From Gammaproteobacteria bacterium (GTDB lineage Bacteria; Pseudomonadota; Gammaproteobacteria; GCA-002705445; GCA-002716945), in contig JAYQJW010000007.1 in NCBI GenBank assembly GCA_038142325.1, positions 16,052-80,051 of the forward strand: a stretch of 64,000 nucleotides of DNA. The letters are read 5' to 3'. Below are positions 530-38,764 of the stretch, piece by piece. Position numbers and translations under genes: made by a program. Within the stretch, counting starts at the first letter, position 1. Each line of letters starts with the position of its first letter. Below the pieces are notes generated by a model that was given only the letters and a program-made list of their open reading frames with translations, searched no databases and had not been told where the DNA came from.

Positions 530-2545
530 ATGAACAGATTTTTATTTTTAATCTTCGTCGCAGTAATAATAAACAATGTTGCAGCTGAAGAAATAACTGA
601 TATACAAATAAGTAGTCCAGTCATGGACAAAGCAATAATAAGTAATGAAGCCATTGAAGAAGTAGATACTCGTAATGCTGTTGATGGTGGCGATCTGCTT
701 AAAAATATTAATGGTATAAATACTATTAGAAGAGGTGGCCATGGACTTGAAGCAGTTATTCGTGGACAAAGCGATCAAAGGTTAAATACCTTTTTAGATG
801 GTGCTATGGTCTATGGAGCATGCTCATCAAAAATGGATCCAGCAAGTACTTATGCTAATGTTAACAACTATGATTCTGTTACTGTCATTAAAGGAACTCA
901 ATCAGTTCTTTTTGGTGCAGGTGGACCTGGAGGCATAGTTAGCTTTAAACGTGTAACAAATCCAGTAACCAAACCAGAATATAGTCTAGGACAGAGTTTT
1001 GATTCCAATGCAGGTGCTTACACAACAAGCGGTAATATGGTATTTCCTATTTCATCAAACTCTTATTTAAGACTTAATGGTTCAACTTCAAATGCTGGTA
1101 ACTATGAAACTGGATCTGGTATCAAGCCTTTGACAGAATATTCTACAACTGATTATACAGTCATATTAGGCACACTTTTATCAGATGGTTCTAAATTAGA
1201 AGTTAACTACTCGAATAACAGACAAGATAAAGTTGGTTATCCAGGACTTGCTATGGATATTGCCTATAGTTATACAGATATGTATACGCTGAAGTATCAC
1301 AGAGTTACTCCACTAGGTATATTTTCATCTATGAATCTAGAACTATTCAATACTGACATTGACCATTTGATGGACAATACAACTCTCGGGAGAAAATCAG
1401 TTGGAGCTATGGGAGCCATGGCTTGGCCAACTGCATCAGATACATATGGGGGAAGAGTAATAGGTACTATTGGCTCGAATATGAGAACAGGTATTGATTA
1501 CGAGCATAATACTAAAAATGCTGAGCAAAATATGGTCATGAGCATGATGGGCTCATTGACAAATGTTCACATGACATATCTATGGCCAGATGTTGAAACT
1601 GAAAAACTAGGCTTATTTTTTGAGCAAGATTTAAAAAATATTTCATATGGATTAAGATACGATCAAGTAGAGCTTGATCCAAGAAAAGCTAATGTTGATC
1701 CCGGAACTGGAACAATGCAAATCACAGCAAATGAAGTCTATGCAAATTCTGATAACGGTGGTTATGCAGCTGCAACCAAAAGAGAGTTTGATAACTTAAG
1801 TGGTTTTTTAAGATTTAACGATATAATGTCTGGAACATCATTGAGTTTGAGTATAAATGAGAGGGCGCCTGATACAACTGAGCTATTTCAATGCTAAAAA
1901 GCATAACTCTAGCGCAATGATGAGGCATGTTGGTAATCCACATCTATCCTCTGAGCGTCATATGACAGTAGAGCTAGGTTATGATGGAATGGTTTTGGGC
2001 AATCATATTAAAGGCTCAATTTATTATAATGATGTCGATGATTACATAACAACACATCGTGTTGGTGATAGCGCTATGAAAGCTAGAACTTACAAAAATG
2101 TTGATGCAACTTTATTTGGATATGAAATCACAGCACATAGAGTAATCTCAGGTATAGATACAACGTTGAATCTTAACTACACAAAAGGAGATGACGACAC
2201 GCAAAATAGACCTCTACCTCAAATTATGCCCCTTGCTGGTGACTTAACTTTTGAAGTGAAATCTGCAAAAAGTCAAACTATGGTCTTAGAATAAATTTTG
2301 CTGATACTCAAGATAGATTTGATTCAAAAGTACTAGATGTTGGAAGAACTGCAGGATATACAGTCTATGATATTTTCGCTGGTTTTGAACCAACTCCTAA
2401 TTTACGTTTTACAGTTGGAATGGGTAATATTACTGATAAAAGATATGCTACTCATTTAAATACAACTAACACTCTAGATTCCTCAGCAACTCGTACAGAT
2501 GAGCCAGGAAGAACACTATTTGGTTCAATCAATTACGATTTTTAA
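530..2545 (+). CDS. TonB-dependent copper receptor (OprC/NosA-like), split by two apparent frameshift errors
   Basis: Plug motif GACSSKMDP (CxxxM) plus DHLMDN (HxM), the OprC copper site. ORFs 530-1897 and 1857-2294 and a third frame ending EPGRTLFGSINYDF* at 2545 (C-terminal Phe of outer-membrane barrels). Indels at ~1888 (T run) and ~2270 (A run). RBS GGAGG upstream. Confidence 0.85.
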
Positions 2546-35975: not shown

Positions 35976-36070
35976 TATGGACAGAAAGTAGACAAAGTAT
36001 AAATATATTAGACAAAACTTATATATTAATACTCTAATCTACTTAATTAATTGACAAAATGCGGACAAAG
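35947..36070 (+). repeat. Helically phased GACA(A/G/C)A direct repeats upstream of alkB
   Basis: GACA cores at 35949, 35980, 35991, 36011, 36053 and 36064 (spacings 31, 11, 20, 42, 11). Confidence 0.55.
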
Positions 36071-36079
36071 GAGGCAATT

Positions 36080-37273
36080 ATGTCAACAATATTTGCAAAC
36101 ATTAAGTATTTGCTTGCACCATCACTAATTCTAGTAACTCTAGCAGGTGTGATTGCAGGCGGAATGCTTTCTTGGATTGGTGTTGCACTTTTAGGCGTAG
36201 GTGTCATCGTTGACACTATTCTTCGTAAGCAAGCTTCAAGCTCAATGCACAAAGAAGACGGTTCTACTAAAGCAAGCCCAACATTCCAAAACTTGGTAAT
36301 GTACATGATGTTACCTGTATTCGTACTACTACAACTTGCATTAGCATGGAGAGTATACGGATTCATGACAGGTGTACCAGTAGAAATAACAGCAACATGG
36401 TTTGGTCTAATACCTGTATATAGCGGGATTACCTCATTAGATTTAATCGGTGCAGTATTATCAACAGGTATATTTGCCGGTATAGGTATCATTTACGGAC
36501 ATGAGTTATCACACTGCAAAGGCTTTGCATTCATTATTTCAAGAATGACAATGGGTCTTTCAGGTTCAGCTCATTTCTGCTATGCACACGTATACAACCA
36601 TCACCTAGAACTTGCTAGTGAAGATGATCCTGCAACTGCACCACGCGGTCGTACAATTTATGGTCACTACTTACTATCATACCTAGGACAATCAAAATTC
36701 GTGTTTAACATGGAAAAAGAAAGACTTTCTAGAATGGGAGTACCTTTCATTTCATGGCAAAACCGTTGGATTCGTGGTTATATGATGTCAGTACCTTCAG
36801 CTGTATTATTCTTTATGGCTGGTGGCTGGATTGGTATCGCAGCACTTGCTACAGTGTGGGTAATTTCAAACTTTGAATTAGAAGCTTTGAACTATCTTGA
36901 GCACTATGGCTTAATTCGTGTGAAAGACCAACCAATTGACTATCGTCATAACTGGGACAACAACACATTGTTCACAAGCTGGTTCTTCATCGAAATCGGT
37001 CGTCAAGCTGACCACCATGATCGTGGAGAAACACATTTCTGGGAACTTGAAAACGTAGGCGCACCTAACACAGGTTGGGGCTACTTTACAATTTTCGCGC
37101 TAGCACTAGTACCACCACTATGGCACTGGTATATGCGTAAAAGATTAGCTACTTGGGATGAAAAATTCGCAACAGCTGAAGAAAAAGGTATCGCTAACAG
37201 AATCAACAAAGAAGTTGGTTATGAAGGTACTTCATTCAAAGGCGACGAGCTATCTTTCCCTGTAGAAAACTAA
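36080..37273 (+). CDS. alkB: AlkB/XylM-family membrane di-iron monooxygenase
   Basis: HELSH, HVYNHH, DPATA, NYLEHYG and RQADHH boxes; AAGGAGG RBS before ATG 36080. Confidence 0.85.
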   Translation: MSTIFANIKYLLAPSLILVTLAGVIAGGMLSWIGVALLGVGVIVDTILRKQASSSMHKEDGSTKASPTFQNLVMYMMLPVFVLLQLALAWRVYGFMTGVPVEITATWFGLIPVYSGITSLDLIGAVLSTGIFAGIGIIYGHELSHCKGFAFIISRMTMGLSGSAHFCYAHVYNHHLELASEDDPATAPRGRTIYGHYLLSYLGQSKFVFNMEKERLSRMGVPFISWQNRWIRGYMMSVPSAVLFFMAGGWIGIAALATVWVISNFELEALNYLEHYGLIRVKDQPIDYRHNWDNNTLFTSWFFIEIGRQADHHDRGETHFWELENVGAPNTGWGYFTIFALALVPPLWHWYMRKRLATWDEKFATAEEKGIANRINKEVGYEGTSFKGDELSFPVEN

Positions 37274-37284
37274 TATAGGAAATA

Positions 37285-37798
37285 TCAAGAATCAAAAGGA
37301 CTTGATGCACCCCTCTTTTGAGGGGGTGTTTTTTTGTCTTCATTCTCTGGCATATACCTTAAGCCTATGCCAATAAGCGCAGCTTTTAATATTTCAATAG
37401 CATCTCTCTTATTAATATCATCAATACTAAATAGCTTAATAGTGGAAGCAGATTGTTTTTTCATTTCCATCAACCTCTAGTTTACAGCTACTACATTTAT
37501 ACTTAAGCCCAATATTAGTAAGTGTCTTGACGATTATTAAATTACTTAGAGAGCCTTTAATATTTTTGGGCAAACTTATCTCGATATAACCATTTTTATT
37601 GGATACATTGTATGGCTCTATTTTTACCTTACTATTACAAAGAATAGATCTAAGCTCGTTGACGATTACCACATTAGGTATTCTTAAAAACTCTTTGTTC
37701 TCTTTGTAGAAATATACTTTTACTGAGCCTGAATAGGCTGCAATTTTGGCAGAACTCGATGGATTATCAAGCTCAGCTGCGGTTTCATGATTTCTCAT
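37285..37798 (-). CDS. Hypothetical protein downstream of a tandem SAM riboswitch (probably one ORF, frameshift at ~37458)
   Basis: ATG 37798 after AGAGGAG. Removing one A from the A run joins 37436-37798 to 37285-37473. Internal repeat IVKTLTNIGLKY / ILKAALIGIGLRY. Confidence 0.6.
37307..37335 (+). terminator. Intrinsic terminator of alkB
   Basis: GCACCCCTC-TTTT-GAGGGGGTGT followed by a T tract. Confidence 0.85.
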
Positions 37799-37803
37799 TT
37801 TTA

Positions 37804-37863
37804 TCTCCTCTTTAGTGTTTTTACTGATCAGTATTGGCACACAATCTAGAGTTCAAATGCCAA
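37804..37863 (-). ncRNA. SAM-V-like riboswitch aptamer overlapping the RBS
   Basis: UUGGCA-UUUGAAC-UCUAGAUUGUG-UGCCAA, hairpin UACUG/CAGUA, then AAAACACUAAAGAGGAG. Matches the SAM-V pattern (P1, AUUUGAAC, UUGU, ACUAAA + SD). Confidence 0.8.
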
Positions 37864-37894
37864 AAAAAAACCATCACGCTAAAGCAAGTGATGG
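37862..37894 (-). terminator. Riboswitch-controlled intrinsic terminator
   Basis: CCAUCAC-UUGCUUUAGC-GUGAUGG followed by U9. The loop is complementary to the 3' tail of the upstream aptamer. Confidence 0.85.
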
Positions 37895-37901
37895 TATCTG
37901 A

Positions 37902-37949
37902 TCGCTTTAGCTCTTTTACGCCTGCAAGCTGAAATTCAAATTAGGCGTG
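37902..37949 (-). ncRNA. SAM-II-like riboswitch aptamer
   Basis: ACGCCU-AAUUUGAAUUUCAGCUUGC-AGGCGU-AAAAGAGCUAAAGCGA: P1 stem, AUUU, UUGC and GCUAAA core of the SAM-II/V pseudoknot. Confidence 0.75.
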
Positions 37950-37954
37950 TCATG

Positions 37955-37983
37955 ATTAAAACATTACTATTATTTACTGTCAA
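37955..37983 (-). promoter_or_regulatory. sigma70 promoter driving the riboswitch leader
   Basis: TTGACA-17 nt-TTTAAT with an extended TG; the predicted +1 (~37949) coincides with the aptamer start. Confidence 0.7.
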
Positions 37984-38764
37984 CTTTTTTATTAAATGGA
38001 TGATACAAATTATCAATTAATTTTAGCTCTAAATTTCTATTTTCCACACCCATTACTTCTCTATCATCATCAGAAGCATCTACATATGATCTAAAGATAA
38101 AATCCCACACAGTAAAGATACTTGCATAGTTAGCTTCTCTAGATGCTGTAGCTTTAGTATGATGATTTGTATGATATTTTGGCGTTACTATAATTCTTGA
38201 TAATGTTTTATCAAGTGTTTCTGTAAGCTTGATATTGCTGTGATGAAATTGAATTGATAGAACTAAAATAATCTCATAAAACAAAAATTCTGCGAGTGTA
38301 ATTCCGAAAATAAATATAACAGCAGCTTTGTAAACAGTCGACATGATAAGTTCACCTATATGAAACCTAACAGATGTGCCAACATCCATGTGCGTATCAA
38401 CATGATGAACGAAGTGGAATTTCCATAGGAATGAATTAGTATGATTAAATCTATGCCACCAATACATTGCAATATCTAGAACTAGAAAACTCAAAACAAA
38501 CTTCAAAATATCAAGATCAGTAATAGAATTTAATATACCGTAATGATTTTCTGTAACCATAAGTAAGGTAGGCATGAGTATAAATATAATCGGCAAACGC
38601 ATTATTATGGTATTTATAAATCCGATTATTGAGTGAAAAATCAATCTTTTGTATCTAGGAGTCTCCCAATTCCTATTCGAAAAAAATGTTTCAAGTATAA
38701 AAAATAAAATAAACCCTAGAATAAAAAATGAAAATTTTAATGTAGTTAAAGTCTCTATTGTCAT
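37970..38764 (-). CDS. Sterol desaturase / fatty-acid hydroxylase family protein
   Basis: YWWHRFNH, HFVHH, FHHSN and HTNHH histidine boxes; ANYAS..WD. Confidence 0.88.
   Translation of the reverse strand: MTIETLTTLKFSFFILGFILFFILETFFSNRNWETPRYKRLIFHSIIGFINTIIMRLPIIFILMPTLLMVTENHYGILNSITDLDILKFVLSFLVLDIAMYWWHRFNHTNSFLWKFHFVHHVDTHMDVGTSVRFHIGELIMSTVYKAAVIFIFGITLAEFLFYEIILVLSIQFHHSNIKLTETLDKTLSRIIVTPKYHTNHHTKATASREANYASIFTVWDFIFRSYVDASDDDREVMGVENRNLELKLIDNLYHPFNKKVDSK

Follow-up and report, generated by a model that had tools for sequence, protein, structure and literature searches.

A predicted two-level SAM-II/SAM-V-type tandem leader upstream of an orphan gene in an uncultured gammaproteobacterial order

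A tandem of a SAM-II and a SAM-V riboswitch, two families that respond to S-adenosylmethionine (SAM), is listed for the bhmT gene of 'Candidatus Pelagibacter ubique' (PMC2704228). The pairing of SAM-II with SAM-V has been called unique to Pelagibacter among sequenced organisms (PMC5069961), and SAM-V itself is reported from marine Alphaproteobacteria and Bacteroidetes (PMC6061858). Such 'bi-mechanism' tandems comprise 120 original and 149 current examples, in all of which SAM-II is followed by a terminator while SAM-V occupies the ribosome-binding site, and tandem SAM-II pairs with mixed expression platforms are counted with 44 examples (PMC9481103). Here we analyse a leader on the minus strand of a 64,000-nucleotide (nt) stretch of DNA, the window, from a member of the Gammaproteobacteria (assembly GCA_038142325.1, contig JAYQJW010000007.1, positions 16,052 to 80,051). 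The leader has the bi-mechanism layout: a SAM-II-type aptamer, a terminator with its poly-U run, a SAM-V-type aptamer, a Shine–Dalgarno sequence (SD) and the start codon of an orphan gene, P0001. We consider it likely that this leader is a working two-level SAM OFF switch of the SAM-II/SAM-V kind. The original prediction, made from the letters of the window, had read the locus as such a tandem, and both the covariance models and the order of the elements, which is that of the published tandem, agree with that reading.

The Pelagibacter tandem and the leader described here have in common a predicted logic in which SAM would turn expression OFF in transcription and in translation, a similar leader length, with the poly-U run at U82–U90 in Pelagibacter (PMC11508383) and at leader positions 79–87 here, and a host with a small AT-rich marine genome. 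They differ in the target, which is bhmT in Pelagibacter and the orphan P0001 here, in the host, which here belongs to an uncultured gammaproteobacterial order, and in that both aptamers here score under the Rfam gathering scores. Moreover, the leader analysed here shows an explicit candidate antiterminator between the tail of aptamer 1 and the terminator loop, as well as a candidate long-range helix that covaries. Elsewhere SAM-V precedes metY, bhmT, mmuM and metH, whereas here it precedes an orphan, in Gammaproteobacteria. Our search of the literature found no prior report of SAM-V in Gammaproteobacteria or of SAM-II in ARCTIC96BD-19, although some published metagenomic examples may be these very sequences. 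The kind of RNA device is already known; what is new is the host lineage and the orphan genes under its predicted control. A tandem so far tied to Pelagibacter, marine metagenomes and bhmT is now anchored in the genomes of an uncultured gammaproteobacterial order. Since the scores lie under the Rfam thresholds, routine annotation would miss it. By marking orphans as putatively SAM-regulated, the leader offers one of the few clues to function for hypothetical genes in streamlined marine bacteria that seem to be without the usual methionine synthases.

Layout of the leader and its two aptamers

Promoter, aptamer 1, terminator, aptamer 2, SD and ATG follow one another, by direct reading, on the minus strand from 37983 to 37796, each of them where the original prediction had placed it.

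37978..37983, minus strand: -35 hexamer TTGACA, read directly, at the same place in all compared upstream regions that are long enough
37955..37960, minus strand: -10 hexamer TTTAAT, after a 17-nt spacer from the -35 hexamer
37900..37948, minus strand: aptamer 1, SAM-II-like, with SAM_alpha and SAM-II model matches and P1 covariation
37902..37911, minus strand: candidate antiterminator 5' strand, the aptamer-1 tail GCUAAAGCGA, complementary to the terminator loop
37862..37894, minus strand: predicted intrinsic terminator, CCAUCAC (37894-37888) with GUGAUGG (37877-37871), 10-nt loop 37887-37878, U9 at 37870-37862
37805..37863, minus strand: aptamer 2, SAM-V-like, with a full-model SAM_V match and P1 covariation
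37436..37798, minus strand: P0001, the putatively controlled gene, an open reading frame (ORF) for a 120-amino-acid (aa) orphan protein

The -35 hexamer overlaps the final codons and the stop of the upstream gene P0002; at one locus, cut at a contig end, the upstream region is too short to include it. In relatives the -10 hexamer is mostly TGTAAT or TTTAAT, with the spacing unchanged, and from the position of the promoter transcription would start at about 37948. The SD GAGGAG lies at 37810-37805 and the ATG at 37798-37796. A GTG at 37840, offered by the ORF list as an alternative start, falls inside aptamer 2 and was set aside, the ATG and the SD being kept in all orthologues. Contigs from RNA libraries of four studies cover both ORF and leader, which attests presence only and not ends, strand or level; one of them spans the terminator, and three, from two studies, end at 37851, inside aptamer 2.

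Aptamer 2 resembles SAM-V (RF01826; metY structure PDB 6FZ0) in its predicted H-type pseudoknot, the third strand AUUUGA, a P2 of UUGUG with CAC(U)AA, the presence of P3 and an SD that follows directly. In the window its P1 is formed by UUGGCA (37863-37858) and UGCCAA (37839-37834), its third strand is AUUUGAAC, P2 joins UUGUG (37844-37840) to CAC(U)AA (37817-37812), the P3 hairpin occupies 37833-37822 and the 3' segment is CACUAAAG (37817-37810), at whose final letter the SD begins, directly 3' of P2. With permissive filters over 37700-38100, SAM_V matches aptamer 2 at 34.9 bits over model positions 1-66 (E 4.7e-4); in the whole 1.1-Mb genome this is the single SAM_V match (E 3.1e-4), and all upper-case consensus letters of the SAM_V core (GGCAUUUGAAC ... 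UUGUG.GCC ... CACUAAA.AGGAG) are matched. Orthologous leaders score 26-40 bits with the same model, which has no match at E <= 0.1 in 14 control genomes and, under stricter filters, none at E <= 0.001 in 150 genomes of other gammaproteobacterial families. For SAM-V, the proposed model is that a short P2a hides the ribosome site and so turns translation OFF (PMC6061858). The pairing between P2a linker and SD in aptamer 2 fits this model: CUCU (37851-37848) can pair with AGAG (37811-37808), which would cover part of the SD, with 82% of alignment cells paired, and in other genera the linker reads CUUC, complementary to AGAG/GAGG of the SD region.

The likeness of aptamer 1 to SAM-II lies in its P1, the AUUUG of its third strand, GCUUGCA, the tail GCUAAAG and a terminator downstream; it is without the long G+C-rich P2a that is typical of SAM-II (PMC6061858). 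P1 pairs ACGCCU (37948-37943) with AGGCGU (37923-37918), the third strand is AAUUUGAA, followed by CUUGC and the tail GCUAAAG (37911-37905), and P2 joins UUGC (37927-37924) to GC(U)AA (37911-37907), such that the P1 stem, the U-rich third strand and the GCUUGCA and GCUAAAG core of SAM-II are all present. Under the same permissive filters SAM_alpha gave 18.9 bits and the SAM-II long-loop model 18.2 bits; SAM_alpha reached 20.1-23.1 bits on aptamer 1 in six of twelve relatives' loci, and at E <= 1 it matches 8 of the 14 control genomes. The covariance check with SAM_alpha and SAM_V that the original prediction had called for, once run, matched both aptamers, both under their gathering scores, and across orthologues the family assignment of the two appears consistent, though never over threshold. 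In most genera aptamer 2 has UCAGCUUG in common with aptamer 1, and both may thus have diverged from a single, copied aptamer.

It is improbable, in our estimation, that the aptamers are derived from SAM-II/V and bind another ligand, for example S-adenosylhomocysteine or another sulfonium or adenosyl compound. Such a view could draw on the fact that every model match is under its gathering score, on the third strand of aptamer 2, which in most genera is AGUUGAUC and not AUUUGAAC as here, and on targets that are orphans throughout (P0001, the presumed twin-arginine translocation (Tat)-signal protein P0123 and the small ORFs on contig C8 of the window's genome). However, the differing letters stand at lower-case, that is less conserved, positions of the Rfam consensus, and both P2 strands and the UUUG/CUAAA core are identical to the SAM_V and SAM_alpha consensus. 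In SAM-V the triplex nucleotides that hold SAM are reported to be >97% conserved (PMC6061858). We infer that SAM is the ligand of both aptamers.

Conservation and covariation of the leader

The family of the organism, which makes up the whole order, is represented by 37 genomes in six genera. R1, a covariance model built on the complete leader, has matches in 29 of them and in all six genera; extra R1 matches in two genomes (G017 and G013) proved to be fragments of the one locus, at contig ends, and not further loci. Homologues of P0001 occur in 28 of the 37 genomes, again in all six genera, and in all 28 the leader lies upstream. In two genomes (G008 and G011) P0001 is absent because of contig breaks, and two more (G001 and G005) lack P0001 but have an AlkB-like gene, 72% identical, in a different context. 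The columns of the RNA leader are on average 83% identical, and protein identity of P0001 between genera falls to 25-27%; conservation is thus much stronger in the leader than in the downstream protein, which argues for selection on the RNA itself.

A pattern of two invariant window motifs yielded 82 metagenome stretches, listed as 80 loci; these 80 were joined with 14 genome loci, and the 93 that match R1 comprise 65 distinct leaders. In the distinct leaders of the genomes, 27 in number, the paired fraction is 92.2% of 799 cells, which none of 500 shuffles equals, and four pairs change on both sides. In the set of 65 the paired fraction is 97.6% of 1479 cells, against 26-49% in slid controls; 5 of the 23 pairs change on both sides (equalled in 5 of 500 shuffles), and the covariation score is 0.114 vs 0.054 in shuffles (0/500 equal). 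These changes fall in helices of both aptamers and of the terminator. One pair of aptamer-2 P1 is U-A in 33 leaders, C-G in 31 and U-G in one, and three pairs of the terminator stem show two-sided changes, the most variable being C-G in 41, U-A in 22 and G-C in two. The inner P1 pair of aptamer 1 was counted by parsing, because MAFFT and the model misplace a gap there, and among 26 distinct leaders reads ACGCCG/CGGCGU in 17 and ACGCCU/AGGCGU in eight, with one mismatch. The aptamer-1 core (AUUUGA, GCUUGC and GCUAAAG) is unchanged in all 65.

Terminator, antiterminator and predicted regulation

Folded alone (ViennaRNA), the terminator has -11.4 kcal/mol. The tail GCUAAAGCGA and the loop UUGCUUUAGC (37887-37878) can form ten pairs, nine Watson–Crick and one G-U, and the resulting antiterminator hairpin, at -12.8 kcal/mol, is the minimum free energy (MFE) structure of the segment from the tail to the U run. 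The 10-bp antiterminator of the original prediction is thus a pairing that exists, that is nearly isoenergetic with the terminator and that is retained in a divergent lineage (below). In relatives the terminator is the MFE structure (-10.5 to -15.0 kcal/mol), and the tail–loop hairpin forms, at -3.2 to -9.9 kcal/mol, before the 3' arm is made. Complementarity between tail and terminator interior extends over 8-10 contiguous nt in 15 of the 27 distinct genome leaders, with loop-shuffle fractions <= 0.0082.

Three divergent leaders (L082, L091 and L092) come from a metagenome lineage of higher G+C content and keep the same tandem layout.

L091, leader 2131-2303 and gene 1556-2131, minus strand: tandem before a 191-aa protein

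The three leaders have another terminator stem altogether (CCCGCU/AGCGGG), their P1 stems also differ (GCGCC/GGCGC and CCGGC/GCCGG), the outer P1 pair of aptamer 1 changing from A-U to G-C, and GCUUUAGC still stands opposite GCUAAAGC, now overlapping the terminator 5' arm. We regard this complementarity, apparently kept despite the replaced stem, as the strongest support for the antiterminator. The 191-aa protein that follows the divergent tandem is unrelated to P0001, has no Pfam family and has relatives in 55 clusters, unnamed or hypothetical; its N-terminus carries a twin-arginine-like sequence, which we take to be a Tat signal.

We propose that transcripts initiated from TTGACA-17-TTTAAT at about 37948 would fold aptamer 1 into an H-type pseudoknot like that of SAM-II. 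With SAM bound, the tail GCUAAAGCGA would be held in P2/P2a, the terminator with its U9 would form and the transcript would end. When no SAM is present, the free tail may pair with the terminator interior as soon as the latter is made, and this antiterminator would let the polymerase read through. On the readthrough mRNA, binding of SAM to aptamer 2 would extend P2/P2a up to and into GAGGAG and block initiation at the ATG (37798). SAM would in this way shut off both transcription and translation, and P0001 would therefore be made only at low SAM.

Considering the two levels separately, it may be that only aptamer 2 works, with aptamer 1 and the hairpin forming a constitutive or otherwise-controlled attenuator, or a source of a small RNA, and with the tail permanently masked by the linker, so that aptamer 1 would not respond to SAM by itself; we think this unlikely. 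In its favour, the tail–linker hairpin matches the terminator in stability here, aptamer 1 has a score of just 18.9 bits, and a terminated SAM-II leader is reported to act as a small RNA in Sinorhizobium (PMC9373788). Yet an aptamer-1 core that is invariant in 65 leaders, together with covariation in its P1, is hard to explain if nothing is bound, and a masked equilibrium state is what would be expected of a kinetic transcriptional switch, with which sensing during transcription is still compatible.

Several observations weigh against a working switch with SAM as its signal on both levels. At gathering thresholds Rfam has no match in the whole window: aptamer 1 stays under the gathering scores of 36 (RF00521, SAM_alpha) and 44 (RF01726), and the 41 bits of SAM_V are reached in none of the 37 genomes, the best relative having 40.1 bits. 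The -10 hexamer TTTAAT is without A at position 2, and a consensus scan for promoters and terminators, which required that A and a terminator loop of at most 8 nt, lists neither the leader promoter nor the leader terminator; the former was missed because of the -10 letter and the latter because its loop has 10 nt. The MFE of the full leader is ordinary (z = -1.31, with 16 of 200 shuffles folding equally well). Both P2 pseudoknot helices are paired in 100% of cells and never vary, so that covariation neither supports nor contradicts them. The alignments were fitted to the model and the metagenome rows chosen on two fixed motifs, and most of the compensatory changes separate few clades and hence represent few independent events. 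The antiterminator complementarity is broken, to 4-7 contiguous nt, in 12 of the 27 genome leaders, mostly of one genus. Further, P0001 is without a link to SAM or methionine, no such motif lies upstream of the MetY-like gene and metK of the genome, and in the Pelagibacter tandem the SAM-II domain was unresponsive to SAM in the full-length RNA in vitro (PMC11508383).

The most sweeping alternative, that there is no riboswitch at all and that a protein-bound leader or an ordinary attenuator bears a chance likeness to SAM-II/V in AT-rich DNA, could appeal to the MFE z-score, which is not significant, to a loose motif descriptor that has 44 matches in this AT-rich genome, and to the SAM_alpha matches at E <= 1 in more than half of the control genomes. 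We hold it to be highly improbable, however, given that two independent family models match adjacent elements in the order of the published tandem, that the controls are free of SAM_V at E <= 0.1, that the P1 stems covary and that conservation of the RNA far exceeds that of the downstream protein.

Beside the two-level switch we observed a feature that the original prediction did not contain, a candidate long-range helix between the two aptamers.

37898..37903, minus strand: GAUCAG, helix 5' strand, just 3' of the aptamer-1 tail, complementary to CUGAUC
37826..37831, minus strand: CUGAUC, helix 3' strand, in the P3 hairpin of aptamer 2, complementary to GAUCAG

This helix is part of both the MFE and the centroid structure of the full leader. 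It is paired in 100% of 162 cells and, in the larger set, in 98.7% of 390 cells, and its variable position is G-C in 45 leaders, A-U in 15, G-U in three and U-A in two. The same nucleotide of the helix also covaries within the local P3 stem, and the two pairings may therefore alternate. The helix is missing in the divergent lineage, and its support comes from few events; the chance that it is genuine seems to us about even. It is of interest because the Pelagibacter SAM-II domain is silent in the full-length RNA and regains its response with oligonucleotides directed at the linker or at a portion of SAM-V (PMC11508383); the helix might conceivably be the structural basis of that cross-talk through the 'linker'. 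The natural variation in the 65 leaders makes the antiterminator and the long-range helix testable explanations of the silent Pelagibacter domain.

Controlled gene, host and related elements

No Pfam or NCBIfam family was found for P0001, the matches being noise only, and the statement of the original prediction that the gene could not be assigned to any SAM or methionine pathway stands. Among 1.84 billion representative proteins only 23 relatives were found, and the 107 clusters of relatives are all unnamed or 'hypothetical'. In an alignment of 16 sequences P41, R50, C54, I74, K91, L98, K101, C105 and Y120 are invariant. An AlphaFold2 model (predicted local distance difference test, 75.7) suggests a ferredoxin-like alpha/beta sandwich with a disordered N-terminus. 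A profile search of PDB with P0001 gave no matches at E <= 10, a Foldseek search with the model gave nothing at E <= 0.001, and the best ESM Atlas score, 0.86, gives no more than a lead.

The nearest fold to P0001 is that of the phage SAM lyase Svi3-3 (PDB 6ZM9), a ferredoxin-like sandwich of similar size, which is the top row of the VIA wide fold search (Z 7.7, root-mean-square deviation 3.0, 92 residues; not decisive) and ranks 2-3 in Foldseek (E 0.012). A Z below 8, however, is a value that common arrangements also reach, with 7.4 for a de novo ferredoxin fold, and Svi3-3 and P0001 share 9% sequence identity. Gly56, Glu69 and Gln104 are conserved in SAM lyases (PMC7877911); among the residues invariant in the 16-sequence alignment of the P0001 family there is no Gly, Glu or Gln. 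It would also be counter-intuitive for a SAM-degrading enzyme to be turned on by low SAM. We take the modelled likeness to SAM lyases as a lead only.

The flanks of P0001 are formed by two genes of fatty-acid-related families.

37970-38764, minus strand: P0002, fatty-acid hydroxylase family gene, upstream flank
36059-37273, plus strand: P0003, AlkB-like fatty-acid desaturase family gene, convergent with P0001, 80-99% identical across genera

The order P0002, leader, P0001 and convergent P0003 is kept across the family at all loci that reach far enough. No SAM or methionine pathway gene lies in the wider neighbourhood of P0001, in which no association with sulfur, methionine or SAM genes was found. 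Such an association is the customary setting of the bi-mechanism family and not a defining property of the RNA. We weighed whether P0004, a 62-aa ORF on the minus strand (37285-37473) with an overlap at the end of P0001, might be the operon's second gene; it is confined to close kin and has a terminator-like hairpin inside, and is therefore likely no gene. That hairpin (37307-37329) probably terminates both of the convergent genes, P0003 and P0001.

The original prediction had spoken of a gammaproteobacterial sulfur oxidiser, of which the gammaproteobacterial part fits, and the sulfur-oxidizing part is supported in part by a SoxB match of 710 bits. In the window's genome (G000) SoxB lies at C2:623988-625598 and a rhodopsin (139 bits) at C2:58425-59036, and the large subunit of RuBisCO was not found, which suggests a light-using, thiosulfate-oxidizing heterotroph and not an autotroph. 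Neither MetE-type nor MetH/BhmT/MmuM-type domains were found in this genome, which is 98.5% complete; across the order MetE-type domains occur in none of the 37 genomes and MetH/BhmT/MmuM-type domains in four. MetK, a MetY-like gene and an AhcY gene are present, the first two without such a leader. The AhcY gene (G000:C2:222569-223875, minus strand) adjoins metK; its ORF ends at 349 aa and the C-terminal part lies in another frame with stops, and a frameshift or an assembly error is therefore indicated. As far as these genomes can tell, a route from homocysteine to methionine is not recognizable in the lineage, and the order seems largely without known methionine synthases.

The one gene of the genome that is predicted to be doubly SAM-gated is a lineage-specific orphan. 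That P0001, and likewise further orphans found downstream of SAM-II/V-type switches in these marine lineages, is an unrecognized player in SAM/methionine homeostasis is a suggestion that we make while holding it doubtful. Were it true, P0001, small and bearing cysteines, could supply the missing step or factor, be it in methionine regeneration or sparing, or in the processing of sulfonium or thiol compounds.

Other elements of SAM-II/V type were seen in the same genomes. On contig C8 of the window's genome, at L002 1385-1445 and 1625-1685 (plus strand), lie two near-identical elements resembling SAM-II, with SAM_alpha scores of 18.9 and 18.1 bits, each ending in GCUAAAGGAG directly before a small ORF, of which one has 83 aa and the other is a frame of about 58 aa without a canonical start codon. 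Genome scans with loose descriptors gave 42 and 44 matches, mostly meaningless, of which only the window aptamers and these two elements looked real. Elements related to the C8 pair stand before different small ORFs in four further genomes (G007, G015, G020 and G029). Finally, a lone SAM-V-like aptamer (38.8 bits) at L044 (G017:C7), positions 2480-2548 on the minus strand, immediately precedes the gene of a protein of some 430 aa, whose two C..H..M motifs we take to resemble cupredoxin copper sites.

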